A DNA stretch of 64,000 nt from Halorutilales archaeon Cl-col2-1. GTDB lineage: Archaea; Halobacteriota; Halobacteria; Halobacteriales; Afararchaeaceae. Positions 10,258-43,066 of this stretch are shown here, piece by piece. Numbering within the stretch: the first letter of the stretch is position 1; every line of letters begins with the position of its first letter. The position numbers and the translations under genes are program-made. The stretch is from the NCBI GenBank assembly GCA_041891055.1, contig CP169074.1:896001-960000 (forward strand), written 5' to 3'. Under the pieces are notes generated by a model, which had not been told where the DNA came from, searched no databases, and saw only the letters and a program-made list of their open reading frames with translations.

Positions 10258-10968
10258 GGAGGATGTCAAGTTTAGAGATGGTGTTGTGAGGAGCAGCATA
10301 GGATTTCAGCCAGTTAGAGATTGATTGGAGCTATTGGTCGGGAAGCGATCCCAGAACCGAGTAGTTCGGTGTGTTGCGAACCCAAAGTTTGCATACATCC
10401 AAAAATCGAAGATTTTTGAATATTTCAAGACACCGAACTACGACTCTAGTAGGATACGTTGTCCGTAATGCGTCGAGGCTAGATCTACCTTTACTGACGT
10501 CGACGTGGATCACCTTAAAGATGTCCACATCGACGACTGCCCAGACATACACTTGCTCTCCATCGATTTCCAGCTTAGTTTCGTCGACAGCAACTACATC
10601 CCGGTGATCGGTTTCCGGTTCGAAGGGGTGAGACAGTCGGTGATACCACTGTCTTCTTGTGAATCGAAGATTCACGGGATACGCGAATCTGTGATTCGCT
10701 CAACACAGCCTCATGCGAACGTTCGACCACCGGTTCTATATCACGGTACGATAAGCCGGCATAGTACAGGAAAGACGTTGCAAACGCGAAGCGTTTGACA
10801 GCCCACAAATCTCCGATTTGTGAACGCGACCACGCGTCTTTTCTTCAGAGTGTCTTCACGACAAAACTATTTCTTCTTTGCGTGCTTTCTCTATCACGTG
10901 GTTGAGCATTTTCCATCCCACAACAAAATTGCTCAACCATACTCTTACTCTCTAAGGTTAACACCGCC
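10258..10968 (-). mobile_element. Degenerate IS6-family insertion sequence
   Basis: Terminal motifs GGCGGTGTTAACC (10968 end) and TGTCAAGTT (10264 end); transposase fragments VAVDETKLEIDGEQVYVWAVVD and GLSYRDI...SHEAVRQWYHRL. Confidence 0.8.
10331..10909 (-). pseudogene. IS6-family DDE transposase pseudogene
   Basis: Frameshifts, internal deletion and three hairpin-unit insertions (about 10372-10420, 10655-10703, 10776-10824). Confidence 0.8.
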
Positions 10969-11026
10969 AGACGAGCCCTAGATATATGAGTCTCGGGTTG
11001 GTAGGTGGTCAATCGGGGGAAACAAA

Positions 11027-12232
11027 ATGAAAGAATCGAGACGTGACTTCCTTAAGAAGGTCGGTGTAGTAACGGGGGGAGTGTCAGTAGCGGGGTGTAT
11101 GGGGCAGACAGAAACGCAACAGACGGGAGGGCAGGATGGTGGTGGGGAGACTGGATCGGGCTCAGGTGGAGGCTCCGACATAGAGTCGTGGGAAGAGGCT
11201 CAACACGTCGCGACTGCTTCTTGGCTCTCCGACAACATAGACGACGTGACCGTGGTAGACGCTAGTCCTGTCGACGGTACGGGATACATAGACGGTGCTG
11301 TCGGGCTCGACGCGAGTCAGACGAGAGAGGCTCCGGCGACACCTCTCCATTTCGAGGTCAACGGCGTCATGAAGAGACCCGACGACCTCGCCGAAGTCTT
11401 CGGTCAGAACGGTATCTCGGAGACAGACGACGTCGTGGTCTACGACGAGTTCGGAGGTCTCTGGGCGGCTACGGTCGTCAAGAGCTTCATCTGGGCGGGA
11501 CACGAAGGCGACGTGAAGCTCTTCGAGGGCAACCGAACCTACTGGGCGGAGGAAGGAGGTGCGACATCAGAGAGCTTAACCGAACCATCAGGAGCCGACT
11601 ACTCACACAACGGTCCCGCGGAGGATCTCATCGTGACCGGAGTCGACGTTATGAGACATCTCAACGACGACTCGACTGTCTTCGTAGACAACAGGGACTT
11701 CGTCGAGTACACCGGAATAGAGGTGAGACGCCACGGAGGACCCAGTGGTTCGCGCGAGGATATGAACCACCGTGGAGGACATATACCCGGAGCGGAGCTT
11801 CTGCCGTGGAGACGTCTCCTCACAGACCCCGACAACGACGAGCTAACGACCGTGGGAACCAGCGATATAATACGTAGTCCCGCCCATCTGCGTCCCGTCA
11901 ACGAGGTGTCGTCGGAGTTAGGCGACCTGGGAGTGAGTCAGGATCAGACCGTTATCTCGTACTGCCAGACCGCCGTGAGGGGTGCTCTGCCGCTTCCGCT
12001 CCTGACTGACATGGGATACGACGTCCGTGTCTACGAGGGGGCCTACGAAGAGTGGGGAGGAAACCAGATAACACCCATAACAGACCTGCCGCCCGGTGGT
12101 GGATGGGCATACGAGAGAGCCGAAGAGTACGGCGGCTTCCCTGGCGGAGACGACTACGGCGCAGAACAGGAGTCATACAGCTCCGACGAGCTGCTTGAGA
12201 TACTCTACGACTCGCTCGAACCCGGTACGTAG
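11027..12232 (+). CDS. Tat lipoprotein thiosulfate/3-mercaptopyruvate sulfurtransferase (tandem rhodanese)
   Basis: SRRDFLK...VAGC; GHIPGA; active loop YCQTAVR; YEGAYEEW. Confidence 0.88.
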   Translation: MKESRRDFLKKVGVVTGGVSVAGCMGQTETQQTGGQDGGGETGSGSGGGSDIESWEEAQHVATASWLSDNIDDVTVVDASPVDGTGYIDGAVGLDASQTREAPATPLHFEVNGVMKRPDDLAEVFGQNGISETDDVVVYDEFGGLWAATVVKSFIWAGHEGDVKLFEGNRTYWAEEGGATSESLTEPSGADYSHNGPAEDLIVTGVDVMRHLNDDSTVFVDNRDFVEYTGIEVRRHGGPSGSREDMNHRGGHIPGAELLPWRRLLTDPDNDELTTVGTSDIIRSPAHLRPVNEVSSELGDLGVSQDQTVISYCQTAVRGALPLPLLTDMGYDVRVYEGAYEEWGGNQITPITDLPPGGGWAYERAEEYGGFPGGDDYGAEQESYSSDELLEILYDSLEPGT

Positions 12233-13518
12233 CCGACTTCCTCGGGTTCGGACGCTCCTGTTGGAGCCCGAGGCTCAGACGACTCCGAGTCGCTGAGACG
12301 GAATATACGTGACGCCGACTGGAGAGTCTCGTAGTCCTCCGACGCCGCAGCCTTCTTGAGCGACTGAGTCGGGTCGGAGAGTAGCTGTGAGACGAGAGAA
12401 CGCGTGAGATCGTTTATTATCTCCTTCTCGTCGTCGGAGAGAGTCGTGCCGTTTTCCTCTAGCCTCTCGAACGCCCTCTGTGTCTCAGTCTCCCTCAGAC
12501 CCTCGGCGTAGCTGTATATCCTCGACAGCATCTCCTGTGCCGCCTTCTCGTTGAGCTTGCGTTCGAGAACCCCCATCTCCTCCGAAATCATCTCCTCGAC
12601 CCTCTCCGCCGCCTCTCTCCGCGTTTCGAGGGACGAGTCGCTGACCTGTGAGAGATCGTCTATGTCTACGACATCTACCTCGTCGAGTTCATCTGCGTTC
12701 TGGTTGACGTCGCGCGGGTTGGCGAGGTCAACTACGAGGAGTTGGTGTCCGTCGAGATCCGACTTGTCGAATATGGGATGGGGAGCACCCGTCGCGGTCA
12801 CGACTATGTCGGCGGCATGGAGATGTCTCGAAAGCTCGGCGAACTTGACGGGCTCACCACCTATCTCGTCGGCGAGCTTCGCCGCTGTTTCGAAAGTTCT
12901 GTTAGCCACGAGTATGTCGTCGTACTCCTTATCCCTCGACGCGAGTGCCTTAGATACTAGCTCCCCCATGTCTCCCGCACCTATCACAAGGACAGTTATC
13001 CCTGAGAGATCGCCCAAACGTTCCTTAGCGACCTCAACGGCGGCGCTTCCCATCGATGCGTTGCCCTCGTTTATACGTGTCTCCGAACGCGCCCTTTCGC
13101 CAATATGTATTGACTTTATTATCGCAGTGTCGAGGGTGCTGTCAAGATGACCCTTCTCGGAAGCCTCGTGGTAGGCGTCGCGTATCTGTCCGAGTATCTC
13201 GTCCTCTCCGAGTACCATGCTTTCGAGACCACACGCGAGACGCATCAGATGACGTACCGACTCGGTGTGTCCCTTGTACTTCCTGAGTTCACGGTCTATC
13301 TCTATCTCGTCGGCGATCTCCTTGAGAGCCTCCCTTGGTGACTCTCCGGTGACATAGAACTCGGCTCTGTTACACGTCTGGAGCACAAACGCCTCTCTTA
13401 CCCCCTGCTTCGACTCCAGGCTGTCGAGAAGATAATCTACGTCGGGCTTACAGACCTCCTCTAGCTCGTTGACCTCCGCCCACTTGTGAGTTACAAGAAG
13501 GCTCCTGATCTCAGACAT
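12205..13518 (-). CDS. hemA: Glutamyl-tRNA reductase
   Basis: QTCNRAEFY, GLESMVLGEDEILGQ, IGAGDMG, DLANPRDV. Confidence 0.97.
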   Translation of the reverse strand: MSEIRSLLVTHKWAEVNELEEVCKPDVDYLLDSLESKQGVREAFVLQTCNRAEFYVTGESPREALKEIADEIEIDRELRKYKGHTESVRHLMRLACGLESMVLGEDEILGQIRDAYHEASEKGHLDSTLDTAIIKSIHIGERARSETRINEGNASMGSAAVEVAKERLGDLSGITVLVIGAGDMGELVSKALASRDKEYDDILVANRTFETAAKLADEIGGEPVKFAELSRHLHAADIVVTATGAPHPIFDKSDLDGHQLLVVDLANPRDVNQNADELDEVDVVDIDDLSQVSDSSLETRREAAERVEEMISEEMGVLERKLNEKAAQEMLSRIYSYAEGLRETETQRAFERLEENGTTLSDDEKEIINDLTRSLVSQLLSDPTQSLKKAAASEDYETLQSASRIFRLSDSESSEPRAPTGASEPEEVGYVPGSSES

Positions 13519-13524
13519 CTCAGG

Positions 13525-13653
13525 CTAGTCTTTGAGTACGAGTGTCCCGCTGAGTATCTGGTTGAGTATTATGACACCGACTACGACCAACCCTATTGCC
13601 GTGACCAAAGCCCAGTAGGTACTGCTCCCTTGTTCCAGCCCAAACACTTGCAT
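13525..13653 (-). CDS. Small 42-aa single-pass membrane protein (not in ORF track)
   Basis: MQVFGLEQGSSTYWALVTAIGLVVVGVIILNQILSGTLVLKD*; ends 6 bp before hemA; AT-rich TATA-like sequence upstream. Confidence 0.6.
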   Translation of the reverse strand: MQVFGLEQGSSTYWALVTAIGLVVVGVIILNQILSGTLVLKD

Positions 13654-13759
13654 ACGTCATACTATACCACAGTTTAAGTTAAATCTGTCGGAGTCCCCGA
13701 GTACGCCGCAGTACGAGACACGAAGCCTTTATGCCCACGGACACCACGCGTTGTTTCAG

Positions 13760-14440
13760 ATGGCACCACGACCCCGACTCGTGACTCTGCTACGGATTCC
13801 CGACGCCGTCTCACTCGCGAACACGGCTCTGGGATTCGCCGCGGTTACCTTCCTCCTCTCAGGTGACACAGATACAGCGGCACGTCTGGTTCTCCTGGCA
13901 GGAGTCGCCGACGGACTCGACGGTATATTAGCGCGTCAGTCGGGAACGAGTCAGATAGGCGTCGAACTCGACTCGCTCGCAGACGCAGTCTCCTTCGGCG
14001 TCGTCCCTGCGTCACTCGTCCACGTCGTCACGAGAGGCGAGTACACGTACCTCTCTCTGCTCTCCGTCGTCTTCCTCCTCTCCGCAGTCGTGCGTCTTGC
14101 GGTCTACAACGTCAAGGACTCCGACTCACCGGGGTTCACGGGAGTCCCGTCGACACTCGCAGGCATCACAGTCGCGTCGGCTTACCTCTCAGACCTCGGG
14201 GCTCCGACAGTCTTCTTCGTCTTACTCACGTCTGTACTCGCGTACCTCATGGTGATCGACACGTCGTACCCCGACCTCAGGGAAAGGGACGCAGTACTGA
14301 TGGGTGGACTCATAGGAGCCTCGGGTGTCTTTCCCGACGTAGCAGGGTCGGCTCTGCCGCGTCTACTTCTCGTCTTCCTCGTCCTCTTCGTCGTCGGAGG
14401 ACCGTCGCTATACCCGAACCCTGAGAAAGAAGGTCACTGA
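13760..14440 (+). CDS. pssA: CDP-alcohol phosphatidyltransferase (archaetidylserine synthase-like)
   Basis: DGLDGILAR...G..LDSLADAVSFGVVPA motif. Confidence 0.85.
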   Translation: MAPRPRLVTLLRIPDAVSLANTALGFAAVTFLLSGDTDTAARLVLLAGVADGLDGILARQSGTSQIGVELDSLADAVSFGVVPASLVHVVTRGEYTYLSLLSVVFLLSAVVRLAVYNVKDSDSPGFTGVPSTLAGITVASAYLSDLGAPTVFFVLLTSVLAYLMVIDTSYPDLRERDAVLMGGLIGASGVFPDVAGSALPRLLLVFLVLFVVGGPSLYPNPEKEGH

Positions 14441-14475
14441 GTTTATACCGAGAGGAGACTTATCTCTTCTATACC

Positions 14476-15501: not shown

Positions 15502-15548
15502 CGCACGACGTGCCTTAGACTTATCTGTTTAAAACGCCAAATCTCTTT

Positions 15549-16358
15549 ATGGGAGTAATACAGCGTTTCACCAACCTCGTACGTACTAAGCTCAACTCTC
15601 TGATAGGGCGTTTCGAGGATCCGTACGAGACACTCGACCAGGCTTACGAGGATCTCAAGGACGAGGAACAGAAGGTCAACAAGGGACTCACAGACCTCAA
15701 GACGTCTAAGAAACGTCTTGAGATGAGGAAGAGGAAGTTAGAGGAAGAAGTCGAGAAACGCAATAAGCAGGCGCGTGACGCCGTGGATCAGGAGAGGGAC
15801 GACCTCGCGAGAGAGGCGCTTGAGAAGAAGCAGTCGGCGATGTCACAGATAGAGGACTTAGAGGAGAAGATACAGCGTCTCGAAGCCCAGGAGGAAGACC
15901 TCAAGGAGAAACGCGAGAGACTCAAGACGAAGATAGAGGACTTCAAGACGAAGAAGGAGAGCATGAAAGCAGAGTACTCCGCCGCCGAGGCGTCGGTAAA
16001 GGTCAATGAGGCTGTGAGCGGCGCGGGCGACGAGATGGAGAACATCGACAGGACTGTCGACCGAGCACAAGAGGAGCTCGAAGAGATGAAGGCACGTTCG
16101 GAAGCCCTAGACGAGATGGATCAAGAAGGCGACTTAGAGTCGCCCTTCGAGGACTCCGACTCGATAGACGACGAGTTGGACAATATCTCGTCCCAGAACG
16201 CCGTCGAGGAGGAGCTTGAGACTCTCAAGACCGAGACTAAAGGAGATGAGGAAGCGGAAAAGGACGGAGTGAGTTCGGGGGAGAGTGAAAAGTCGGACTC
16301 CGACGAGGTCGAGAAGGAGCTTGAGGAGATAAAGAAAGATAACGACAACGGGGAGTAG
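15549..16358 (+). CDS. pspA: PspA/IM30 family protein
   Basis: MGVIQRF...EDP..L, DLAREAL, long coiled coil. Confidence 0.9.
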   Translation: MGVIQRFTNLVRTKLNSLIGRFEDPYETLDQAYEDLKDEEQKVNKGLTDLKTSKKRLEMRKRKLEEEVEKRNKQARDAVDQERDDLAREALEKKQSAMSQIEDLEEKIQRLEAQEEDLKEKRERLKTKIEDFKTKKESMKAEYSAAEASVKVNEAVSGAGDEMENIDRTVDRAQEELEEMKARSEALDEMDQEGDLESPFEDSDSIDDELDNISSQNAVEEELETLKTETKGDEEAEKDGVSSGESEKSDSDEVEKELEEIKKDNDNGE

Positions 16359-16420
16359 ACACAGCGCAGCCACCGGCTCCGATGCCGAAGCTGACGCTGA
16401 CGCCGAAGTCGAAGCCGAAG

Positions 16421-16816: not shown

Positions 16817-16908
16817 GGGAAGATTAGAGGGTGGAGACTAAAATACCTTAACTGAGAGGGCGAGGAGAAGGCTTATGGTGTTGGTCTTTGTACCAATAGT
16901 AGTAGAGG

Positions 16909-17391
16909 ATGGCTTCAGTAACGGATGAGGATATGATAACCATGGAAGACAATACACCGCCGCTGCACCCGATGGAACGTGAACAGCTTAAAGCTGAATC
17001 GACCCTTGTCGTCACAGTGAAATCCTCCGAGGAGTTTCACGAGGAAGTCACTGAAGGAATCCAAAACCTCAAGCACGGAGACTCAACAGACTCACCTCCG
17101 ACACTGTCGTTCACTACCTACGACGATCTAATGAAAATCCTCACGCCGAGAGTACTCGACCTCATAGAGACTATCCGACAGGAAGAGCCGTCGAGTATCA
17201 ATGAGACCGCTAGGATGGTGGACAGGGACGTTAAGAACGTCCACGAGGAGCTCAGCAGAGTCGCGCGACTCGGTATAATATTCTTCGAGGAAGAAGGACA
17301 GAGTAAGCGTCCTGTAGTCTGGTTCGATGAACTCGTGATCAACCTGCCATTCAGCCAAGAAAAGAAAGAAGCTGCTACCGTAGCTCCTTAG
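16909..17391 (+). CDS. HVO_A0114-like wHTH DNA-binding protein / putative antitoxin
   Basis: LTPRVLDLIETIRQEEPSSINETARMVDRDVKNVHEEL...KRPVVWFDEL. Confidence 0.8.
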   Translation: MASVTDEDMITMEDNTPPLHPMEREQLKAESTLVVTVKSSEEFHEEVTEGIQNLKHGDSTDSPPTLSFTTYDDLMKILTPRVLDLIETIRQEEPSSINETARMVDRDVKNVHEELSRVARLGIIFFEEEGQSKRPVVWFDELVINLPFSQEKKEAATVAP

Positions 17392-17396
17392 ATCCT

Positions 17397-18812
<1,416 letters not shown>

Positions 18813-18935
18813 TAGGCTTAGAGTAACGCGGAGACCACAAAAAAGCCTCTATCTTGATACAGCGAGAGAATCCCGCCCTTCCCGCGAAGGACGAGTGTTC
18901 CGACGCCCTGTCGGAACCGAGGACTGAGCAGGGCG

Positions 18936-19282
18936 TTAACGAGAGCGAGCCCTCGTTCGCACATCAGAACGCTTCGCGTTCTGAGGACGTTCGCTAATCT
19001 CTGATTAGCGTGCAAGCAAATCTTCGATTTGCATACGTTCAGAAATCAAAGATTTCTGAGCCCACGAGAGCAAAGCTCTCGGGACGTTCGCTAATCTCCG
19101 ATTAGCGAGCCATCAAACTCGTAGAGTTTGAGACGTTCACGAATCGGAAGATTCGCGTGCGTCCTCAGAAACTTCGTTTCCGGGCTTTCCACAAATCGAA
19201 GATTTGTGTAGTAGCCATTCGAAGAATGGCATACCTTCGGAATCAGAGATTCCGAGACACGAGAACGTAAGTTCTCGGGACG
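18936..19282 (+). repeat. Head-to-tail array of 7 double-hairpin mini-units (47-54 bp) inside the IS left end
   Basis: Units start T/TTC and mostly end ACG, e.g. ttcagaaatcaaagatttctgagcccacgagagcaaagctctcgggacg; 14 stem-loops. Confidence 0.85.
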
Positions 19283-19381
19283 GGAGTGAATCGCGTAAGC
19301 CCCGTGCCACAATCTCTGTGACTGTTGCCTGACTGAATACCCAACGTAAGTATTTAGTAGGGCAGAAACGTACAAATTCTT

Positions 19382-19525
19382 GTGCGAACGGAGATAGATA
19401 TGGAGCGCGGTGGGGACCTACACGAGCGAGTCAAAGAGTATGCTCGTGAGAATGGCATCCGCCATCCGCGTGCCTACCGCGAGCTAATTGAACAAGGGTT
19501 AGAGACGGATGGAAACAACGACTAA
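19382..19525 (+). CDS. 47-aa ribbon-helix-helix-like protein upstream of tnpB (not in ORF track)
   Basis: VRTEIDMERGGDLHERVKEYARENGIRHPRAYRELIEQGLETDGNND*; similar to 41246-41389; overlaps tnpB start. Confidence 0.65.
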   Translation: MRTEIDMERGGDLHERVKEYARENGIRHPRAYRELIEQGLETDGNND

Positions 19526-20840
19526 GACGCTCGAAGCGACCCTCGCGCCGCCGACAGCACACAAGGAGCGGAAACTGTGTGACTTGCTCGAAACCTACCG
19601 TGAGGGCCTACACGAAGCGTTCGACGCCGGGTGTGACACGATGAGCGCAACCAGCGACGTGGTGACGCCCTACGACTTACCGTATCAGGCGAAAGCGGCC
19701 CTGTGCAACTACGTCCCACAACTGCACGAAACCTACGATGCACAGGAGTTAGACGACGACCACCCGGTTCGGCTCACCAACCAGTCCGCCGAGTTCGACC
19801 ACTCTCCGGCGCGTGACTACGAGTTTACGTGGTGGGTGCCCCAGCCCGGTCGCGGAACGAATTTCTGGATACCTCTTCGCATCAACCCCGAACAGGAGGA
19901 TCTGTGGCACGACGTCGTAGACGGAGACGCTTCGGCAGGCCAACTCCGCCTGCAACAGAATCGTACATCGTGGACGCTACACGTCACTGTCGAGTTTCCG
20001 GTCGAAGAACCCGACTACGCGACAGACGGCGACGACGTGACGCACATCGGTCTGGACATTGGTGAAACCGCCCTGATAACGGGCTGTGCCCTCAAGGACG
20101 GTTCACCAACTGGCCCGTTCGTGTGTGACGGGAGCCGTGCGAAGCATCTCCGAAAAGAGATGCACACCACCCTGAAACGACTCCAAGAGCGTGACGCCGC
20201 CGAGTGGCGGATTGACGAACGGTTCGACTACTACCAGAACGCACTCACGGACATCATAGAGAAGGCGTCTCGGCAGGCAATCGAGTACGCCCGGCAATTC
20301 GAGAAGCCGGTGCTGGTGATGGAAAATCTGACGTACATCCGCGAAGAATTGGACTACGGCGCGTACATGAACCGGCGACTCCATGCGTGGGCGTTCGCTC
20401 GGTTACAGAACCGCGTCGAGGACAAAGCGCGAGAGGCCGGTATCCCAGTCAAATACGTCCGACCGGAGTACACCAGCCAGACGTGCCACGAGTGCGGCCA
20501 CATCGGAAACAGAGCCGCACAAGCCACGTTCCGGTGTACCAACGACGAGTGCCACATTACGGCGTTTCAGGGCGACATAAACGGCGCAATCAACGTTGCA
20601 CAACGGGCTGACCCGTGGGGAGAGAGCGTGCCGCTGAAACCGGCAGGCAATGACTCGCCTCGGGATGGGAGTGCCTGTGACAGCACCACGACCTCGTTCG
20701 AGACGGCGGAGCCGTCTCGTGATCACGAAAGACGCGACGCGTCTTTCGAACGACACCGTGAGACGAGCGAGAAACACTCGCAAATGACTCTCTCGGCCTT
20801 CCACGGGTCGGAACCCTCTACCAGCGATAGCCGCACTTAG
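19509..20840 (+). CDS. tnpB: RNA-guided endonuclease TnpB
   Basis: RuvC GLDIG / MENL / GDING; Zn finger CHECG...CTNDEC. Confidence 0.93.
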   Translation: METTTKTLEATLAPPTAHKERKLCDLLETYREGLHEAFDAGCDTMSATSDVVTPYDLPYQAKAALCNYVPQLHETYDAQELDDDHPVRLTNQSAEFDHSPARDYEFTWWVPQPGRGTNFWIPLRINPEQEDLWHDVVDGDASAGQLRLQQNRTSWTLHVTVEFPVEEPDYATDGDDVTHIGLDIGETALITGCALKDGSPTGPFVCDGSRAKHLRKEMHTTLKRLQERDAAEWRIDERFDYYQNALTDIIEKASRQAIEYARQFEKPVLVMENLTYIREELDYGAYMNRRLHAWAFARLQNRVEDKAREAGIPVKYVRPEYTSQTCHECGHIGNRAAQATFRCTNDECHITAFQGDINGAINVAQRADPWGESVPLKPAGNDSPRDGSACDSTTTSFETAEPSRDHERRDASFERHRETSEKHSQMTLSAFHGSEPSTSDSRT

Positions 20841-20941
20841 CTGGTATTCCCCATGTGTGGGAAGCCGCGCCGTCATCGGACTTCGTCCGATTGCCTGAGG
20901 GATCTTCGATCCCTCTCCGTTCACGGCGCGGAGGATGTCAC
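20600..20941 (+). ncRNA. Putative omega-RNA scaffold of element 1 (5' boundary approximate)
   Basis: Position overlapping the tnpB 3' end up to right-end TCAC, as established for TnpB elements. Confidence 0.55.
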
Positions 20942-20947
20942 TCGGAG

Positions 20948-21382: not shown

Positions 21383-21485
21383 GCAACTGTAGGTTGTGAC
21401 CTGCTAACATAAGTCTTCCGTGACTTCGAGTCAGACGTATCTCATCTCTTAAGTAGGTGAAATTCGTATATAGGTTACTGGTAAG

Positions 21486-22763: not shown

Positions 22764-22825
22764 GTTTAGCTGCGCCCTTCAGTACAGTAAGACCTAACTG
22801 TCGGCTTCCGTTTAATAAGATAGAG

Positions 22826-25751: not shown

Positions 25752-25826
25752 GGGCGCGTAGCTCAGTTTGGACAGAGCATCGGACTTCTAATCCGACGGC
25801 CGGGGGTTCAAATCCCTCCGCGCCCG
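25752..25826 (+). tRNA. tRNA-Arg(TCT)
   Basis: GGGCGCG/CGCGCCC acceptor, TCGGA-CT-TCT-AA-TCCGA anticodon arm, GGTTCAAATCC. Confidence 0.97.
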
Positions 25827-25835
25827 TTCCTCTTC

Positions 25836-30238: not shown

Positions 30239-30910
30239 ATGGAGCTAGAGAGATTCGTCGAGTCGAACTCGACAACTGAGACCGAGGATGAGTTCGAGCT
30301 TGAGAACAAGAGAACACTCGACATAGAAGTAGACGGGAGTGTGATGACGAAAGCCGGAGCTATGGTCGCATACGAAGGTGACCTGTCGTTCACGGGGAAG
30401 TCGTCAGCCGAGGGAGGAATAACGGGTTTCCTGAAGGAGGCAGCCACGGGTGAGGGGACGCCGGTGATGAAGGTCGAGGGACAGGGTCACGTCTACGTCG
30501 CAGACCAGGGAAAGAAGATACAGATACTGTCTCTCGACACTGACGAGGCAATCTCAGTAAACGGAAACGACGTCCTCGCGTTCGAGGACTCGGTCGAGTA
30601 CGAGATAGGAACTATCGGAAGTGTAGGCGGCGCGTCGGCGGCGGGTCTCACGAACGTCTACCTCTCGGGACCGGGAACCGTAGCCATAACTACACACGGC
30701 GAGCCTCTGGTTCTGACGCCGCCGGTGAACACCGACCCCGACGCGACCGTTGCATGGAGCGATAACCTGTCCCCGAGCATAGACACCGACAGGAGCCTGA
30801 GCGACGCGGTCGGACAGTCGTCGGGTGAGACCTACCAGATGGCTTTCGAGGGAGACTCGGGCTTCGTCGTCGTTCAGCCCTTCGAGGAGACACCACACAG
30901 GACTCAGTAG
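30239..30910 (+). CDS. AIM24 family protein
   Basis: KAGAMVAYEGD, TGEG, VDPDA-like TDPDATVAW, GFVVVQP. Confidence 0.88.
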   Translation: MELERFVESNSTTETEDEFELENKRTLDIEVDGSVMTKAGAMVAYEGDLSFTGKSSAEGGITGFLKEAATGEGTPVMKVEGQGHVYVADQGKKIQILSLDTDEAISVNGNDVLAFEDSVEYEIGTIGSVGGASAAGLTNVYLSGPGTVAITTHGEPLVLTPPVNTDPDATVAWSDNLSPSIDTDRSLSDAVGQSSGETYQMAFEGDSGFVVVQPFEETPHRTQ

Positions 30911-30922
30911 ACAGTAGACCGG

Positions 30923-30937
30923 CGAAAAGTTTATTAT
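30923..30937 (+). promoter_or_regulatory. BRE/TATA promoter candidate for the downstream RNA
   Basis: CGAAAAG-TTTATTAT about 25 nt upstream of the structured region. Confidence 0.6.
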
Positions 30938-30959
30938 CTTCCATTATGTATAGTATTCC

Positions 30960-31357
30960 GCTTCGAGGGAGCACACTGGACGGCCCTCTGTGACCGTCTC
31001 CTAGACTTCGAGTCGGGAGTCAGTCGCACGGTCTAAGGGTCGAAAACCGAACCGTCCGTAGAAGGGCGACGAGGAGATAAGATCCTATGGAGAAGCGCAG
31101 AATCCCTGCAGACGTAAAAAGGTGAAAGTCCTTAAGGGAGGGCGAAACTCCCTCCTACGTGTGCGGTTCCGCCGGGGACGAGAACACAAGTCCGTTAAGA
31201 TCGGTCTATGTGTTCTCCCTCCGGAGGGACACGTTAAGACCAAGTAATGGACGACGCGCGAAGCGGCGTTCGTGAAACCGGCGAAAGCCGGATATGGTCG
31301 TAGAGGGATTCGGAAAACGGCTCCAGTCCGGGTTCAAGCCTCGTAGTGTCGGTTCGT
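30960..31357 (+). ncRNA. Unassigned ~400-nt highly structured non-coding RNA candidate
   Basis: 14-bp long-range helix 30984-30997/31294-31307 with three G-U pairs; GAAA tetraloop and T-loop-like hairpins; no credible ORF; upstream TATA. Confidence 0.75.
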
Positions 31358-31543
31358 ATTTACAGGTAATACAGCAGAATGCCCCCGTCTTTAGGCGTAT
31401 GCAAATCGCTACGTGATTTGCTTGCTCAGAGATCTCCGATTTCTGAACGGGGGATGAATGCGTCAACTCCTTAGCCTACCGCGCTACGTAGACCACTTGG
31501 ATATTCATTGTTTTTATATGCTCTACAACCAAATACAATTGTA

Positions 31544-32593
31544 ATGGTCACGACGACGGTGACGGTAAAGTTCCACCAACCCACCCGCGAACGTAGACGT
31601 GAATGGCAGAGAGCCATGCGCCTCTACCGCGACACTAAGCAGTACGTTATAGACGGGTGGGAGGACGACGACTTCGGTATGTCCGTCACTACGTCGGAGA
31701 TAGACAACGAACTCTACGCCGCCATACAGAACCAAGCGATACGTGAGGCTAAGAGTGACTACAAACGCGACGGCATCGTGGAGTACCACCAAAGCCAACC
31801 TTTCGCCGTCAACAACCAGAATTGGGAGGTTGACACTACCGACAACGGCAACGTCGTCCTCGGATTCCCCTGTATAACCGGATGGTGGTACACTCCCGTA
31901 GAAGTCTACGACGAGGTAGATGAAGCCGTACAGAAGCTCGTGGACGGTGAAGGTAACAAGTCACGCCTCCAAGTCTACCGTCGTGGTTCTGAGTGGTACG
32001 CCACATTCAACGTCGAACACGAGCAAGACGTGGGTGGCGAAACGCCTGTCGGCGTAGATATAGGACACAACCACGTCCTCGCTGTCCGTGTACCTGACGA
32101 GGACGAATCCATGCTCGTATCAGGTAAGGAAGCGAAGTACGTCCGGCGTAAGTATCGTTCCCTACGTGATTCGCTACAACAAGCGGGTGCGCTTCGCGCA
32201 CGTAACCGCGTGGGTAACAAAGAACAACGCCGGATTAAGGACATGAACCACAAACTCTCCCGTCAACTCGTAGAGTTTGCTTCCGAGTTCGAAAACGCCG
32301 TGATACGTATGGAGGACTTAGAAGGTATACGTGACGGTAACGGTTGGGATGGCGTCCACTCATGGCACTTCTACCAGATACAGGAGTTCATCACGTATAA
32401 AGCAGAGAAAGAAGGTATTGAGGTGGAGAAGGTAGATCCCCACAACACGAGTCAGATGTGTTCAGAGTGTGGTGAGGATGAAGACACGGTGCGTGACGGC
32501 GACCACTTCACGTGTCACGAGTGCGGATACGAACGCCATGCAGACCTGAACGCGGCGAACAATATAGCGAGACTGGAGGGAGAACCTTGTTAA
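31544..32593 (+). CDS. tnpB: RNA-guided endonuclease TnpB (compact, about 349 aa)
   Basis: GVDIG / MEDL / ADLNA; CSECG...CHECG; TTTTTATAT about 25 bp upstream of ATG 31544. Confidence 0.93.
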
Positions 32594-32640
32594 GCAAATC
32601 GGAGATTTGCGTACCGTCGGAAATCTTCCGATTTCCGAGA

Positions 32641-32941
32641 CTCGGCGTAACAGTCCGGCTGACGAACCGAGTGCCACGCGGGATTAGACAACCCGCCGGT
32701 CTTAGACTGCCTACCGTGAGTAGGGTGGAAGGCGGCTTTGACACCGCTACGTGTGCTGTAAAGGAGCGTCGGAGTGATAACGACGCCCGACCTATGAAGG
32801 AGTCACTCGAAAGCGTACCCGAACTCCGAGGAAAGGCACAACCTTAATATCCCCTTCGGTGATTCCCGCGTTCGTGAATCGAAGATTCACGAGCCATCCG
32901 AGCTTCGCTCGGAGACGTCTTTAGGCGCGGGAGGATGTCAA
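32641..32941 (+). ncRNA. Putative omega-RNA of element 2
   Basis: Structured non-coding interval between tnpB and right end; shares motifs with 45960-46228. Confidence 0.7.
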
Positions 32942-33774
32942 TTCTCATGTATCCAAAGGTCACCGTAGAAGTCGTCCTGTTCGAGACTGACCTCGCCTCG
33001 TGAAGACAGGAAGAGTAGACTGAGGTAGGTATTGACGACACGTGAACGTGACACGGCTTCGGCAACTAGCTCACGGAAGAGAACCTCGTCACGTCTCTCG
33101 AACTCAGTGGCGAGGCGTTCGGAGACTCTCTCTATCTCATCCTCTATGTCGTCCTCGTGTGCAGTCTCTACGGCGTCGTCGGTCGTTGTCTCGGGCTCAT
33201 GTGGTCGTGAGCTAGGTACAGGAGTCGAGTACGCCTCGGGTGAGGAGGATGTATCGTACTCCCGTCTCTGTTTCCAGACGCGTTTCCTCTCCCTGTCCCT
33301 CAGCTCCCGTACTAGCTCGTCGAGTGTCTCGGGATGTGCGTTCCGTCTCGTAGTCTTACGTTCGAGGCGTCTCTCCATCTCGGCTTCGAGGCTGTCAACA
33401 GGGTCGTACTCCGCGCCCGAGCCGGTGGTATCGGCGTGTTCTTCGGTTCTGGGGCTGTGGAAGAGTGCCTCGGGTTCGTCTTCGTCCCGGTCGTCGTCCT
33501 CGTCGTCACCGTCGTCGACGACGTAGTCACTCTTCATGCGCAGGAGTATACTCGCATAGAGGAGAGCCTTTCCCGTGCGTATGAGGTCGTTCGAGTCTAT
33601 CCTTTCGAGGAACTTGTCGGTGACACGTGGTATGTCGATGTCCCACGGGTCTATCTCGCCCTCCTCGGCGAGTCTCACGAGGACGTCGACGGGCTCGTCT
33701 ATCGCATCTTGTGACGTCCCGGCGTCTCCTTCGCCGTCGGTCTCAGTCGGCTTCTGCGGCTGTTTCCTCTTCAT
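32938..33774 (-). CDS. scpA: Segregation/condensation protein A (kleisin)
   Basis: GEIDPWDIDI, ASILLRMKS, YLSLLFL, QDDFYGDLW; follows smc. Confidence 0.93.
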   Translation of the reverse strand: MKRKQPQKPTETDGEGDAGTSQDAIDEPVDVLVRLAEEGEIDPWDIDIPRVTDKFLERIDSNDLIRTGKALLYASILLRMKSDYVVDDGDDEDDDRDEDEPEALFHSPRTEEHADTTGSGAEYDPVDSLEAEMERRLERKTTRRNAHPETLDELVRELRDRERKRVWKQRREYDTSSSPEAYSTPVPSSRPHEPETTTDDAVETAHEDDIEDEIERVSERLATEFERRDEVLFRELVAEAVSRSRVVNTYLSLLFLSSRGEVSLEQDDFYGDLWIHEN

Positions 33775-37530: not shown

Positions 37531-37638
37531 CTCATCTACTCTATACCTTCACGTCCCATAAGTCCAACGTATGACACACGTATGCCGTTGTGCGAAAAGC
37601 GTTGGACTATTAGACTCTAAGTAGAAAACTGATCCGAA

Positions 37639-38211: not shown

Positions 38212-38330
38212 ACTACGAGTCAGTCTTTCCTTACCAATAAATCAACCTATATCCCGAAGCCCGAACCAACCCGTAGGTTTAAATACGACCGAGACATAAG
38301 GAGTCTCCGGTTACGGTTAAATGATCAACT

Positions 38331-38951
38331 ATGTCAGAGTCAGACAACACATCCGACAAGACTGAAGAGCTCAGAGATCTCTTCGTGGAAGTAACAGACG
38401 AGTCCACGGTCACAGAGGAGAAGAAGGAGTCACACGGCACTCTCAAGGACGAGGAAGAGATCAACGAGGAGATAGAAGGTACAGTCGAGGAGATGCTAGA
38501 TAGGTACGGTATCGACACCAAGCTAGACACAGATGACCTCGTCGAACTTGTGCGTCTCTACCACGACGGCTACTCAGACACGGAGATCGCCCGAGATCTC
38601 GGTGATGAGAAGCTCAACAAGACCGTCGCGCGGACGCGGGTTAAGCTCCATCTCTTCCGCGAGTCGGACTTCGATCCGCCGTTCGACATCGACCGCCTGC
38701 GTGAGTTCGTCGACGACGACCTGACGACAGCGGAGATGGCTGACGAACTCGACGTGAGTAAGAGTACTGTTCGTTCGTACGTCCACGTCATAGAGGCAGA
38801 GAACGAGGCAGACCGCGCGAACCACAAGTACCAGGACAGGTTCAAGAACCTGCTTGAGGATCGCGAGATATCCGAGAGGATCACGTCGTCGGCGACGGAG
38901 GACGGTCTCCAGGAGGCTACCGAGGGACTCGAAGTAGACGTCGACATGTAA
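38331..38951 (+). CDS. Conditioned-medium-induced protein 4-like HTH protein
   Basis: KTEELRDLFVEVTDESTVTE, SDTEIARDLG, EDGLQEATEG. Confidence 0.8.
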   Translation: MSESDNTSDKTEELRDLFVEVTDESTVTEEKKESHGTLKDEEEINEEIEGTVEEMLDRYGIDTKLDTDDLVELVRLYHDGYSDTEIARDLGDEKLNKTVARTRVKLHLFRESDFDPPFDIDRLREFVDDDLTTAEMADELDVSKSTVRSYVHVIEAENEADRANHKYQDRFKNLLEDREISERITSSATEDGLQEATEGLEVDVDM

Positions 38952-38954
38952 GAG

Positions 38955-39545
38955 ATGTCGGCGACAGACGAAGCGGTCGAAGCCCTGCGTGACGGGGGTG
39001 TCATTCTCTACCCGACGGAGACTGTCTACGGTCTCGGAGCCGACGCTCTCGATCCCAACGCAGTAGAGCAGGTCTTCGAGATAAAGGAGAGACCGCGTTC
39101 GAAGCCGGTCTCAGTCGCTTTCGGCGACTTCGAGACGGTGAAGGAGTACACGAAACCGAGTGACGACGCAGTGAGTATGATCGAGGATCTTCTTCCGGGA
39201 CCTGTGACAGTTCTGGTTCCGAAGACCGACTCGATCCCGGACGTTCTCACAGCGGGGTCAGAGGTCGTCGGCGTGAGGATACCCGACCACGACGTCGCTC
39301 TCGAAATAACGCGCGAGTTCGGTCCTATAACCAGCACAAGTGCCAACATATCCGGGAAGTCCTCGTCAGCCACCTTTGAGGACATTGACCCTAAGATTCT
39401 AGAACGGGTCGACGCAGCCCTTGACGGCGGCAGGGCGAGGTACGAACTCGGAAGCACCGTTGTCGACACGCGCGACTGGGGGATAGTACGTGAGGGAGCG
39501 ATGTGTGACGAAGTCGAGGACTGGATGACATCCTCCGCGCCGTAA
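38955..39545 (+). CDS. sua5: L-threonylcarbamoyladenylate synthase (Sua5/TsaC)
   Basis: PTETVYGL, KERP..KP, PGPVT, STSANISG; last codons supplied by the IS right end. Confidence 0.93.
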   Translation: MSATDEAVEALRDGGVILYPTETVYGLGADALDPNAVEQVFEIKERPRSKPVSVAFGDFETVKEYTKPSDDAVSMIEDLLPGPVTVLVPKTDSIPDVLTAGSEVVGVRIPDHDVALEITREFGPITSTSANISGKSSSATFEDIDPKILERVDAALDGGRARYELGSTVVDTRDWGIVREGAMCDEVEDWMTSSAP

Positions 39546-39580
39546 ACGGCGCGGTTTCCTCCGTGGGAGTCTCAGTCGGT

Positions 39581-40978
39581 CTAAGACTCGCCGGAAGCAA
39601 CATTCCCGTCACGGTGGACGGTACTCAGGTCTGTGCGCTGTTCTTTGGGACTTTCGTGAGAGTGTGATACCTCCAGCCAATCGTGGCTGTCCCACTCGAA
39701 CCGTGCTCGAAAACGCTGCGCGTTTTCGGCATCCCGGAAATTGGAGATTTCCGAGGACACGGGCCGTGCCATCGGCCTGACTTCTTTGCTCGTATGCCGC
39801 TTCAGGAACGTTTCTGACGCCGTAAGGTCGGCATGACCCTCGAATCCACACTGGCAGGTGAGCGTGTCCTGATGCCGTGTCGTTCGGTCTGTCGAACCAC
39901 ACTGGGGACACTCTTGGCTGGTCCACGCTTCCGACCGGACTTCGACCGAGATACCGTATTCCTCGGCGGTACATGCCAGTCGCTCGGTGAATTTCCTGAA
40001 CGCCCAGAAGTTGTGGGTCTTGGCGTTCGTCTCGACCGACCAGTGGGTTTCGAGTACGTCGGTCAACCCGCCGATATACACGGTATCGACACCTTCGGTA
40101 TACAGTCGTTCCAGCAGGTCACGACACAGTGCTTCTTGTGCGTGATCCCGGCGACGGGTTCGCTTTCGGTACAGCCGCCGAATACGCTTGCTACTGTATT
40201 TTCCTTCTTCGAGTTTCGACTTCAACCGGGCGATTTCCCGCGTCGTTTCGCGGAATCGCTGGAACAACTCACGGCCTTCGTACAGGTATTGCTCGCCGGT
40301 CGTGGTGGTACAGGCAACGAGATTGTTTGCACCAATGTCCAGAGCGGCCTTTTCGTCGGCCAGTGGAGTCTCCCGTGTCTCGTCAGAAACAGTCACGGGT
40401 TGCGAAGCTCTGAAGGTGCTATCAGTCTCGTCGTACCACAGGTCTAGTCGGCCTTGGTCTTCGTAGTCAGGCCAGTTCAGGTCGCCAACTATTTCCAGCC
40501 GAAGACGGCTTTTCGGGCTGTTGTGCTTGTCTCGGAGTTCTTTTCCGACGACCATTTCAAGCCGGGATCGGTCGCCCCATTCGACGGTGTAGGCATCCTT
40601 TCGGACGACGCCTTTGAGAACACGTCCGTCGTCCTCGTTACCACGGAAGCCTGGCGGTTCAGGGTGTTCCGTGACCGACGTGTTCGATTCGTCGTGATAC
40701 GCTTTTTTATTCTCGAAGAACGACCGCCACGCTTCGGTGTTTGCTCGCCGGACAGTTTGAGCGGTGGACGCGCCAAGCACGCCTTTGTATTTGCCTTCGA
40801 GCGCGCCGGTATCGGTGTCCCATACGTCGCCCTCGAAGCCGTCCTCGTCGTTGTAGCGCATGAGGCGCTGGTAGTTAATCTCGTTCCAGAGAGCGGCGGA
40901 AGCGTCCAACAGGTCGCGTAGCACCTGCTCACCATCGTCGGTGAGTGGTCGAACGGCGAACGTGTTGGCGCGCTTCAT
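39581..40978 (-). CDS. tnpB: TnpB-family nuclease with altered RuvC-II region
   Basis: ALDIG, IGGL (no acidic residue), [20 protein letters not shown]. Confidence 0.9.
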
Positions 40979-41024
40979 GCCACAATTCTTTTCACGTCTT
41001 CACGTCAAATAAGTCTTGTGAGAC

Positions 41025-41249
41025 ATGACCGTTGACACACCGCTTACGTGTTACATCTGTGGAGAAACGGACGACTGGACAACCGTTGACTTGATTGGCT
41101 GTTTCGAGGACCGACAAGCCGCAGGGGAACGGTTTGAAGAAAAACATGGGAAGAAGCCGGAAAGTTATCTGTTCGTCTGTCCCGAGTGCAAAGAGGAGAA
41201 CCCGCACCATGCCGAAAACTGCTACGAGAAGTACGGGGGAGTCCAATGA
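41025..41249 (+). CDS. Small Zn-finger-like protein (IS passenger)
   Basis: CYICG...CPEC; 74 aa; divergent from tnpB. Confidence 0.65.
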   Translation: MTVDTPLTCYICGETDDWTTVDLIGCFEDRQAAGERFEEKHGKKPESYLFVCPECKEENPHHAENCYEKYGGVQ

Positions 41250-41389
41250 GGCCAGCAATTGACCTTTCCTATGGATTGCACGGTCGTCTGAAAGATTACG
41301 CCGAAGCAAATGACTTGGAACTTTCAGAAGCGTATGCAGAGGTGTTAGAAGCTGGTCTGGAAGCGTTGGAGACTCAAGACCAGCAGTAA
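41246..41389 (+). CDS. 47-aa ribbon-helix-helix-like protein (IS passenger)
   Basis: MRPAIDLSYGLHGRLKDYAEANDLELSEAYAEVLEAGLEALETQDQQ; ATGA overlap with previous ORF. Confidence 0.75.
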   Translation: MRPAIDLSYGLHGRLKDYAEANDLELSEAYAEVLEAGLEALETQDQQ

Positions 41390-41558
41390 CTCGGCGGCTT
41401 CTCACCAGAGCTTACGCGATTCACTCCCGTCCTCGAAAATCGAAGATTTTCGGGTGCAGCAAGACCTCCGGTCTTGCCATGCCCCTGTTCGCTCCTCGGT
41501 TCCGACTGAGCGTCGGAACACTCGTCACTCACGGGAAGGGCGGGATTCTCTCGCTGAA

Positions 41559-42314
41559 TCAAGACAGCTTCGACCTTATGCGCGAGAGGAGAGAAGTCTT
41601 ACGTGAGCAGTTCGACGAGTAGTCACACGGCTCACATCTGGTTGTGTTCGGAGTCTTCGAGGGTATCTCTCCGTCGACTGCTTTCCTGAGGCTTTCGAGA
41701 ACCGAGTCGAGACGTCTCTCGTACCGACGGCTCACACGTGTCTCGCGCACGACTCCACGTCTCGGATACTCGACGTACGCCGTCTCAACGTCTTCTCCGA
41801 ACTCCAACTCTACGAGACGTGCCGCGGCTGTGGCTTCGATCCTGTGTGGCTCCCAGACACCGTTCTCCGGAGGGGTTCCTGTCTTGATGACCGACGGACG
41901 GTATTCACCCTCGACTGAGAGTATCTTGTCGAGAGTACCGTGTATCTGTGCCTCGGAGCCAGCGTCTATATAAGTCTCCTCTCGCCACGGCGACTCTATC
42001 TCGTCCCAGAAGTCGGAGTCAGTTCTTGTCTGTCGGAGTCGTGATCTGACCTCGTCTAAGTCAATTCCCTCAGAGTCGAGGAGATCGGGAGATATATCGT
42101 CTCCGTAATCGTACTCCGCGAGGTCAACCGCGTCCCCAACGGCTCCCCGTGGGTCTTCGATGAAGTCACCGTACCTGTACGCAATCTGATTGAGCACGAG
42201 GTAGACGGGACTTATGCTCGGAGAGTCGTCGGTGTCGAGGTCGAAGTAGAACTGACGTGGACAGTAGGCTCCCTGTCGAAGATCCGAGAGGCTGAACCGG
42301 TCTCTAGTCTGCAT
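41559..42314 (-). CDS. Solo Cas4/Dna2-like PD-(D/E)xK nuclease with Fe-S cysteines
   Basis: AYCPRQFYF, GTLDKI...IKTG, CEPCDYSSNC; no cas1/cas2 nearby. Confidence 0.85.
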   Translation of the reverse strand: MQTRDRFSLSDLRQGAYCPRQFYFDLDTDDSPSISPVYLVLNQIAYRYGDFIEDPRGAVGDAVDLAEYDYGDDISPDLLDSEGIDLDEVRSRLRQTRTDSDFWDEIESPWREETYIDAGSEAQIHGTLDKILSVEGEYRPSVIKTGTPPENGVWEPHRIEATAAARLVELEFGEDVETAYVEYPRRGVVRETRVSRRYERRLDSVLESLRKAVDGEIPSKTPNTTRCEPCDYSSNCSRKTSLLSRIRSKLS

Positions 42315-42372
42315 CCACAGGTGGCTTTCGTCCTCGGAGTACTTATTTGTATTTGAGGTTCGTGTGGTAGAT

Positions 42373-42792
42373 ATGGCGGAGTCAGACACGGGAGAAACAC
42401 ACGACGAGTACAGATCCGGGTACTGCAACATAGGTGAGTACGAAAGGAGAAAGAGATACACGGTCGCTGTGCTAGGCTTCGTCGCGTCGGCTGTATACGT
42501 CGCTGTGATACTGCTGACCGAAATACCCGGCTACCTCGTAGTCGGAGTCTTCGTTCCCCTGACTGTCGGATTTGAGGGTTACATACAGGGAAAGAGGTCT
42601 TTCTGTGTGACTCTGGGTCTCCTCGGTAAGTACAGTTTCTCGTCAGAGGCGTCCGGGTCAGACTCGGGTGACGTGACGGACTCCGAGGAGAGGAGGTCGG
42701 ACAGACTCTACGCTCTCCGTATAACCGTCACGGCACTGACAGCCGCGGCTCTGACTACCACAGCCATCTACATCGGGGTCACGTCGATTTGA
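42373..42792 (+). CDS. Hypothetical membrane protein
   Basis: GYCNIG..ERRKR followed by three TM segments. Confidence 0.75.
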   Translation: MAESDTGETHDEYRSGYCNIGEYERRKRYTVAVLGFVASAVYVAVILLTEIPGYLVVGVFVPLTVGFEGYIQGKRSFCVTLGLLGKYSFSSEASGSDSGDVTDSEERRSDRLYALRITVTALTAAALTTTAIYIGVTSI

Positions 42793-42880
42793 GAGGACGA
42801 GTGGAGGGAACGAGACGGAGTTTTCGATGAATTTATGTCTGTGACGTGTATAAGTATGGATGTACGGCAGATAGGTGACG

Positions 42881-43066
42881 TTGTGAGGCAGAGCTTCACA
42901 GCGCACAAAGAGTCTGGGACGTTCAGAAATCAGAGATTTCTGAGCCCACGAGATCATAGATCTCGGGACGTTCAGCAATCTCCGATTGATGAGCCAACAA
43001 GATCGGAGATCTTGTGAAGTCTCCGAATAGAGTTCGGATGCCAGCATAATCGAAGATTATGCGACG
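42881..43066 (+). repeat. Array of 4 double-hairpin mini-units abutting and overlapping tRNA-Gly
   Basis: Units at 42881, 42922, 42971 and 43020; unit 42922-42970 nearly identical to 19038-19086. Confidence 0.8.

Follow-up and report, generated by a model that had tools for sequence, protein, structure and literature searches.

Bacterial genomes contain CGTC-tagged repetitive extragenic palindromes (REPs), described by Di Nocera et al. 2013 (PMC3733652) as stem-loops with stems of 8-9 bp, loops of 4-5 nt, a CGTC (or TGTC/CCTC) head and a CCA tail, arranged mostly as dimers. In that account they are reported from bacterial phyla only, head-to-head dimers dominate and tail-to-tail dimers are rare, some families lie inside palindromes and some are in frame in genes (about 20-30 residues), and no associated transposase was found for a class that includes Rickettsia RPE-4/RPE-6 and Neisseria dRS3. 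In the archaeon Haloquadratum walsbyi, the SMR-A repeats (HqIRS42, HqIRS43, HqIRS55) are described as elements of about 110 bp, over 95% identical among copies of one type, that have prominent terminal inverted repeats showing no relation to transposons and lack both a transposase and a target duplication; they target near-terminal palindromes of IS605-type elements and PATEs, and their mobilisation is called 'enigmatic' (Dyall-Smith et al. 2011, PMC3119063). The REP/BIME and REPIN-RAYT systems of Proteobacteria, as presented in PMC3116915 and PMC3479197, form inverted doublets and mosaic arrays with alternating linkers, and are non-autonomous elements thought to move as single-stranded DNA by means of a Y1/HUH enzyme acting in trans. 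Here we characterize a family of double-hairpin units of 46-57 nt in a 64-kb stretch of the genome of Halorutilales archaeon Cl-col2-1 (contig C1, positions 896001-960000; hereafter the window) and in the rest of that genome (G000; 2.06 Mb, four contigs, 99.5% complete). We consider it very probable that these units are a mobile REP-like element.

Judged against the published description, the units appear to match the CGTC-tagged REPs in nearly every behaviour. Both are short perfect stem-loops with an unpaired CGTC-type head, joined into oppositely oriented dimers with different stems, and both occur in palindromes and in frame in genes, with no adjacent dedicated transposase gene. The units differ in their archaeal host, in loops mostly of 3 nt instead of 4-5, in one head that reads CGTTC, in a mobile piece that is a tail-to-tail dimer with a 4-6-nt spacer, and in the frequency of long head-to-tail arrays; the equivalent of the CCA tail comes from the linker GAGCC(A) and belongs to hairpin 1 only. 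With SMR-A, as described, the units share a haloarchaeal host, the lack of a transposase, the absence of target duplication and insertion in the end hairpins of TnpB insertion sequences (IS). In contrast to SMR-A, they measure 47-57 nt and have very diverse stems, in a comparison made by description and not by sequence. Size, identity and terminal repeats place the family outside SMR-A, since mean column identity is 74% even within selected units and the terminal inverted repeat consists of CGT(T)C...GACG only. A separate family of this genus, about 113 nt long with four hairpins, is closer to SMR-A in size than the ~49-nt units; it is found at C1 100867-100970 of G000 and at C1 34581-34685 of the related genome G001, and 8-11 nt of its target (..TCAT) recur at its 3' end (...TTTTCGCTCAT).

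Unlike the REP/RAYT systems as described, the units have no GTAG head, and no single-copy RAYT flanked by repeats was found in G000, where the sole Y1 gene is part of an IS and adjoins tnpB; we therefore do not class them as a REPtron. They resemble PATEs, in the description of PMC3119063, by hairpins near both ends, the absence of target duplication and insertion beside a short specific sequence. On the other hand, they are far shorter, their hairpins are unlike the ends of the resident IS200/IS605-type elements, and they attack such elements; descent from a PATE or IS200/IS605 element was rejected because the unit hairpins differ from the resident IS end hairpins. Judged on duplication, the units are not miniature inverted-repeat transposable elements either, as flank and unit end are identical over 0-13 nt with no fixed length, and a structured non-coding RNA family was set aside because Rfam gives only tRNAs in the window. 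In the literature on ~50-nt units in haloarchaea we found no prior description beyond the 2011 SMR paper, its supplementary SMR tables aside, and the family is apparently the first archaeal member of the tagged-REP/SMR kind. An initial annotation of the sequence had likened the units to REP/BIME and to the Haloquadratum SMR, a comparison that is apt in the light of the accounts in PMC3733652 and PMC3119063. The genome holds a single Y1 gene and hundreds of units, and comparison with a sister species reveals many recent insertions. It offers a compact, well-bounded archaeal system for studying how transposase-less hairpin repeats move, a question left open in the Haloquadratum SMR and bacterial CGTC-REP papers.

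Architecture of the units and their loci in the window

Every interval in the initial annotation contains two adjacent perfect hairpins. The main type, of 47-51 nt and found in arrays, reads TTC-G-nn-AATC-nnn-GATT-nn-CGA-GCC(A/C)-hairpin 2-G(A/G)ACG, or in short form (CG)TTC, hairpin 1 (often AATC-NNN-GATT), GAGCC(A), hairpin 2 (stem of 7-9 bp, loop of 3-4 nt) and GACG; neighbouring units in arrays meet with GACG directly followed by TTCG. Read on both strands, a unit is a pair of opposed CGT(T)C-hairpin-tail modules placed tail to tail, with the CGT(T)C heads facing outwards. Longer variants reach 54-57 nt, and some variants have other linkers, e.g. TGCACC or TACATC. Stems of 7-9 bp end at a sharp limit of 9 bp (among C1 hairpins, 224 stems of 8 bp, 133 of 9 bp and only 5 of 10 bp). 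Loops are mostly of 3 nt (1068 of 2345 C1 hairpins and most units of the seed set described below), mostly pyrimidine-rich in hairpin 1 and mostly GNA in hairpin 2, and are closed by a C-G base pair. The hairpins of one unit are not complementary to each other, and no long REPIN hairpin is possible. Identical units occur in different contexts (e.g. C1 78755-78803 and 915038-915086). Across haloarchaeal families the TTC, GAGCC and GACG segments persist while the stems vary, a pattern that fits a protein reading the ends plus the fold.

We built a covariance model, R1, from 22 units, four of them located in the window; perfect stems were the criterion for choosing these seeds, and 21 of the 22 have GACG at the 3' end (CGTC on the other strand). 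R1 does not model flanking sequence. Alleles were compared with those of G001, the sole genome of the same genus compared (draft, 120 contigs). The loci of the window, with the evidence for each, are the following.

10372-10425, strand unassigned: variant double-hairpin unit in the loop of the IS6-remnant hairpin GGTTCGGTGT...ACACCGAACC; single-hairpin partial R1 matches only.
10655-10703, minus strand: 49-nt unit breaking the IS6 transposase frame; the G001 empty allele joins CCACTGTCT to CACAGC.
10776-10826, minus strand: unit inside the IS6 palindrome GAAAGACGCG-ACCA-CGCGTCTTTC; R1, 42.8 bits.
18936-19282, plus strand: seven-unit array in the left-end stem CCCGCCCT...AGGGCG^GG of a TnpB insertion sequence; allele comparison.
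20694-20753, strand unassigned: 60-nt variant unit in the 3' part of tnpB (open reading frame (ORF) 19509-20840); sequence, with tnpB by Pfam.
20871-20919, minus strand: variant unit downstream of tnpB; R1, E=0.014.
30892-32952, plus strand: whole TnpB insertion sequence, host of three units; absent from G001; Pfam.
31396-31449, minus strand: unit in the IS hairpin CCCCCG-tctttagg-CG^GGGG, upstream of tnpB 31508-32593; junction and R1.
32591-32642, plus strand: unit beginning at the tnpB stop codon; R1, 26.4 bits.
32871-32917, plus strand: unit splitting the IS right-end hairpin CCCGCG^TCTTTAGGCGCGGG; R1, 54.4 bits.
39527-41560, minus strand: whole TnpB insertion sequence, host of two units; absent from G001; Pfam.
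39702-39759, minus strand: variant unit inside tnpB (ORF 39581-40978, minus strand); junction, Pfam and R1.
41430-41481, plus strand: variant unit at the left-end site of a second copy of the 18936-type IS; IS-end comparison and R1.
42867-43055, plus strand: 189-nt insertion (~4 units) separating the tRNA-Gly from its upstream region; G001 junction.
43061-43132, plus strand: tRNA-Gly(GCC), the host feature adjoining the array; tRNA predictions.

Run over the whole 64 kb with filters off, R1 gave 51 matches at E<=1. All 22 of those with E<0.005 lie inside the intervals of the initial annotation, whose double hairpins are confirmed at every coordinate, and nothing comparable to these strong matches was found elsewhere in the window. 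The units at 10372, 10655, 20697 and 20873, which are variant types, gave weak or single-hairpin matches (E 0.014-0.97). In the genome as a whole at least 158 matches were obtained at E<=1, with 150 of 1853 candidates scored. C1 contains 189 instances of the motif AATC-N3-4-GATT and contig C2 contains 23, compared with 15 in a 500-kb first-order Markov simulation, and clusters of at least two hairpins number 135 in C1 compared with 35 in an equal-length second-order simulation. A census under a stricter rule, covering C1 and C2, counts 124 arrays (110 and 14, respectively) with 338 hairpins. The 14 arrays of C2 (116 kb, 49.6% G+C) correspond to about twice the density of the chromosome (110 arrays in 1935 kb).

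The alignment of the 22 units has 96.5% of its cells paired and 11 of its 17 pairs changing on both sides; none of 500 shuffles reaches these values, slid controls are 9-50% paired, and one-sided changes number 0 in 368 cells of this biased seed. The pairing figure is partly built in, because the seeds were picked for perfect stems. The compensatory pair noticed at the outset is real (GAGAGC-aaa-GCTCTC at 19038-19086 versus GAGATC-ata-GATCTC at 42922-42970). The conclusion then drawn from it, that structure appears to be selected, does not necessarily follow: the stems are perfectly Watson-Crick paired with almost no mismatched intermediates, only 7 single-mismatch hairpins being found around the 338 perfect ones (1 of the 7 with G-T, hence no G-T excess), and in G001 a unit inside the SAM synthetase gene has changed at two stem positions without compensation (it differs at 3 of 54 nt, compared with 51 of 1302 nt for the whole gene), which indicates that old copies decay. 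Stems that are perfect probably point to recent copying, to templated repair or to a filter acting during transposition; the first two may account for them in place of long-term selection.

Filled and empty alleles

Alleles were compared by printing the junctions of filled and empty sites. The comparison of G000 with G001 covers 739,407 nt of the latter and contains 16 indels with at least two hairpins. Eleven consist of one to four family units, nine being filled in G000 and two in G001; two others belong to the separate ~113-nt family and three are other elements. Several units arrive together in some indels (two in events 3, 7 and 14, four in event 12). Between paralogous sequences within G000, three of five indels are single units.

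Within the window, the G001 copy of IS6 is without the 10372 unit, and the 10776-10826 unit lies inverted inside its palindrome both in G001 and in the metagenome contigs X1 and X2, which also join 10654 to 10704 and skip the 49 nt between them. These contigs come from four metagenome runs (highest share of sampled words in any run, 0.31); others skip from 18933 to 19281 (347 nt), and contigs of all four runs skip from 20693 to 20754 (60 nt). At the 18936 array site (...CAGGGCG^GGAGTG...) the G001 orthologue carries two different units; most of the 20 copies of this type of IS end fetched from G001, G002, G004, G005, G008, G010, G017 and G024 are uninterrupted, with empty left ends in G001, G002, G004, G005 and G017. 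The interval between flanking matches at the G001 homologue of the 39702 site is ~51 nt shorter, and the G001 tRNA-Gly allele reads GTACG-C-ATTATGCGACGG without the array. The 81-nt stretch around the 32871 unit is 100% identical in G001 contig C70, no empty allele was seen for 20871-20919, and no empty allele turned up in a plasmid collection queried with the IS6 region, where the sole hit was a weak one from Halobellus.

The empty alleles sought in relatives thus exist in G001, in other families and in metagenome contigs, alongside the structural model shared by the units (R1). Removal of a unit does restore its host, as the initial annotation had proposed, through real empty alleles at IS6 10655-10703 and, for the IS end hairpins, by the sequence itself. 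Its reading of a protein-free mobile unit agrees with the many filled and empty alleles, and because the units carry no gene they must be moved in trans. Arrays hold both head-to-head and tail-to-tail junctions, and the alleles identify the tail-to-tail dimer as the mobile piece.

Filled sites read CG, then TTC...GACG, and empty sites have a single CG or TG; the majority of units come immediately after CG or TG and have CG at their own 3' end. CG precedes 8 of 13 matches in the window and 19 of 20 R1 matches in 10 other genomes (4 of the 20 being copies of one larger repeat). Palindromic targets recur: the loop of GGTTCGGTGT...ACACCGAACC, the stem of GAAAGACGCG...CGCGTCTTTC, CCCCCG-tctttagg-CG^GGGG, CCCGCG^TCTTTAGGCGCGGG and CCCCGCCC...GGGCGGGG. 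Insertion is discrete, in pieces of 47-57 nt or several of them together, trans-dependent, located beside CG, and biased to palindromes and to sites like the 3' end of the unit. The 3' CG of GACG recreates the preferred target, as first proposed, and this accounts for the head-to-tail arrays with GACG joined to TTC.

The single CG of empty sites, the CG on both sides of filled ones and the near-palindromic unit junctions around CG would also be produced by a serine or tyrosine site-specific recombinase that exchanges strands at the central CG of GAACGTTC/GGACGTTC and integrates small circular or hairpin intermediates, and the genome does have genes of the phage-integrase family. We regard this as quite improbable: a double-stranded circle of 49 bp would be implausibly small, some insertions have no CG, no recombinase gene is linked to the arrays (no search aimed at serine recombinases was made), and two units interrupt one of the integrase genes themselves.

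Candidate mechanisms of movement

The best overall explanation, to which we lean with modest confidence, is a non-autonomous family of the REP/BIME kind whose units would travel as folded single strands of DNA. A trans-acting enzyme would make its cuts just 3' of ...CG, one at the left flank and the other where the unit itself ends; the unit would go preferentially to sites that are single-stranded or that resemble its own 3' end, and each insertion would regenerate its own target and so allow arrays to grow. The best candidate for the enzyme may be a Y1/HUH transposase of the IS200/IS605 type, and this single-strand mechanism is one that we put forward only tentatively. The cut 3' of ...CG at flank and end would mirror the target and right-end logic of IS200/IS605, and the arrays, the absence of duplication and the liking for hairpin-forming DNA would be explained. 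G000 has one Y1 TnpA gene, at C1 979038-979397, which is IS-borne beside tnpB, and six family hairpins (~3 units) lie in the CCCCGCCC...GGGCGGGG end hairpin just downstream of it.

Several observations weigh against this single-strand reading. The analysis found no enzyme linked to the units, and the IS-borne Y1 gene is not a stand-alone RAYT. Co-occurrence, on which the link to a Y1/HUH enzyme was originally to be tested, fails to discriminate: Y1 genes are present in five of five genomes tested, including G002, which gave no R1 match in our search of 151 Halobacteria genomes (at most 40 candidates scored per genome). The IS end hairpins (GTTCCGAC-n5-GTCGGAAC, CCCGCG...CGCGGG and CCCCGCCC..GGGCGGGG) are unlike the AATC-NNN-GATT type of the units, and the feet of the unit hairpins stand only 2-5 nt from the ends, whereas the corresponding spacing in IS608 is looser. 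The orientation of units forms regional runs that do not follow the GC-skew replichores. The IS6 insertions at 10372 and 10655 have no CG at the junction. Target duplications of fixed length were not found, identity between flank and unit end being 0, 2, 3, 4, 8, 9 or 13 nt, and this variability is itself unfavourable. Finally, native DNA, or a copy of it, supplies the right arm of the terminal hairpin in three events: one in the tRNA-Gly leader, one at a tRNA 3' end where TGGACCG is repeated, and one in an integrase gene where TCTCGGGACG is repeated. Hence a target tends to be similar to the 3' end of the unit, and simple peel-and-paste does not predict native right arms.

The native arms and the variable microhomology are better accommodated by the main rival, template switching (copy choice) during replication between arrays and sites of microhomology, with no dedicated enzyme and with hairpins kept or rendered perfect by intrastrand quasi-palindrome correction. 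In the tRNA-Gly case the right arm of the last array hairpin (to 43063) is native, with GCATAATC unique in both genomes searched. The frequent arrival of several units at once, the scarcity of single-mismatch hairpins with no G-T excess, and the shuffling of hairpin modules, in which 124 hairpins share only 24 distinct NNNNAATC stems freely combined with different partners, point the same way. As a full account, however, we hold template switching to be rather unlikely. Many events comprise exactly one unit with the same sharp ends, some without microhomology (IS6 10372 and 10655; events 4 and 5), and the conservation of TTC, GAGCC and GACG across haloarchaeal families suggests recognition by a protein. 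Errors in replicating palindromes should be universal, yet high copy number is seen in one genus among the 151 genomes, and the G001 SAM synthetase copy keeps its two stem changes uncorrected.

A broader proposal, which we consider improbable and offer as speculation, is that the CGT-headed archaeal dimers and the bacterial CGTC-tagged REPs and RPEs would form one ancient cross-domain class of mobile DNA, served by a host or orphan enzyme, in which the target builds or completes the terminal hairpin. One hairpin arm would then be copied from, or swapped with, native DNA beside ...CG. If true, such a mechanism would generate new perfect palindromes at selected sites, and it would explain why the CGTC class has never been linked to a transposase.

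Distribution in the genome, in genes and among Halobacteria

The units were initially thought to be found only in mobile DNA and RNA genes, which holds for the window. Windows around the 32 TnpB loci, amounting to 3.7% of the genome, contain 53 of the 124 arrays, an 11.5-fold enrichment to which IS copies with the same array contribute (e.g. 533469, 979447 and C2 51551); one or more arrays are present at 25 of the 32 loci. Genome-wide the restriction is wrong: the remaining 71 arrays lie outside TnpB-IS windows, mostly between ordinary genes, and the association with RNA genes is limited to tRNA flanks (the tRNA-Gly 5' leader in the window and a tRNA 3' end elsewhere). Intergenic arrays occupy the four orientation contexts 20, 22, 24 and 27 times, roughly in proportion to the available sequence, with no preference for the 3' ends of genes in this test.

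These contexts bear on whether the units could be functional RNA elements instead of mobile DNA (small-RNA arrays, terminators or processing signals, for example), preserved because selection acts on the RNA structure. The tRNA-Gly array would be part of a transcribed leader if the old promoter were still used, and in tandem contexts units are mildly co-oriented with the flanking genes (20 versus 10). We nevertheless find this very improbable, as the units match no Rfam family and only 3 tRNAs are reported in the window, there is essentially no G-U pairing, all four intergenic contexts are used, IS hairpins and the coding strand of genes also contain arrays, and presence or absence differs between close relatives.

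Likewise, the absence of units from core protein genes is true of the window and not of the genome. The genes found to carry units, with identities from Pfam, are listed below.

SAM synthetase: in-frame 54-nt insert of 18 residues (DVRESEDSRAHEDSKSPR), present in G000 and G001.
Hel308-type helicase: two units, in frame; G001 has one more 48-nt unit at the same site.
M24 peptidase: 48 nt, in frame; empty in G001.
Phage-type integrase: 99 nt, two units, in frame; empty in G001.
ThiN: unit in gene, frame open, by domain length only.
Phosphodiesterase C-terminus: unit in gene, frame open, by domain length only.
DNA polymerase B intein: unit in gene, frame open, by domain length only.
tnpB 20694-20753: 60-nt unit, frame open; metagenome contigs skip the unit.

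The SAM synthetase insert is absent from the aligned sequences of G006 and G008, and the hits in G002-G008 are ~18 residues shorter. Four shorter ORFs (100-209 residues; C1 near 21339, 241062, 735449 and 1618560) also span a unit with the frame kept, and three of them have an alternative allele in G001; the 241062 ORF, the sole one of the four scanned, gave no Pfam match. A PIN-domain gene, on the other hand, is broken by a unit that brings a stop codon. The six G000/G001 events in ORFs, namely events 4, 5, 13, 14 and 15 and that at C1 21337, have net lengths of 48, 54, 48, 99, 48 and 48 nt, all multiples of 3. Units of such length that lack a stop codon are translated as D-V...D peptides. Frame-preserving sites mostly use the canonical strand in a single frame, with a GAC-GTT (D-V) start and a GAC end (e.g. 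DVHQSKIDEPVNQRLTDG and DIRESEDSRAHENESSRDT); GAC followed by G would be favoured as a target and, in an acidic proteome, would also arise very often at Asp codons. Peptides of 16-37 residues have thus been added to essential archaeal enzymes without killing them, which extends the Rickettsia RPE phenomenon to a second domain of life, and in genome annotation of this lineage the arrays account for long tRNA leaders, broken IS ends and odd inserts within housekeeping proteins. The polymerase locus (C1 641670-646688) encodes a 1672-residue family-B DNA polymerase with intein and LAGLIDADG domains, and the unit lies inside the intein region.

Among the 151 Halobacteria genomes, many R1 matches were obtained only in G000 (at least 40) and G001 (at least 41). 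Of the 149 others, 47 have one to seven weaker matches (36-51 bits) with the same architecture, TTCG...GACG preceded by CG. A search with the exact consensus pattern found 18 stretches in five public assemblies of Halobacteriales-type archaea.

Some further differences were observed in the window. The left end of the TnpB/IS200-IS605-type element (18848-18935 plus 19278-19330) is 85-94% identical across several haloarchaeal families, and this conservation, unusually high for a non-coding region, suggests recent spread or a functional RNA or DNA structure. At 16818-17394, a segment of ~577 nt encoding an HVO_A0114-family protein in G000 is replaced by 29 unrelated nt in G001, and at 16354-16418 the C-terminal end of a gene has an Asp/Ala/Ser-rich stretch of 65 nt in G000 compared with 8 nt in G001. 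At the 3' end of tRNA-Arg (25812-25827), G001 (C85, 998-1144) has a 145-nt insertion after the tRNA with a 16-nt direct repeat of the tRNA 3' end, which resembles an att site or the scar left by an integrative element. Finally, a 107-nt Rfam tRNA match at 45738-45844, not reported by ARAGORN, is probably an intron-containing archaeal tRNA.

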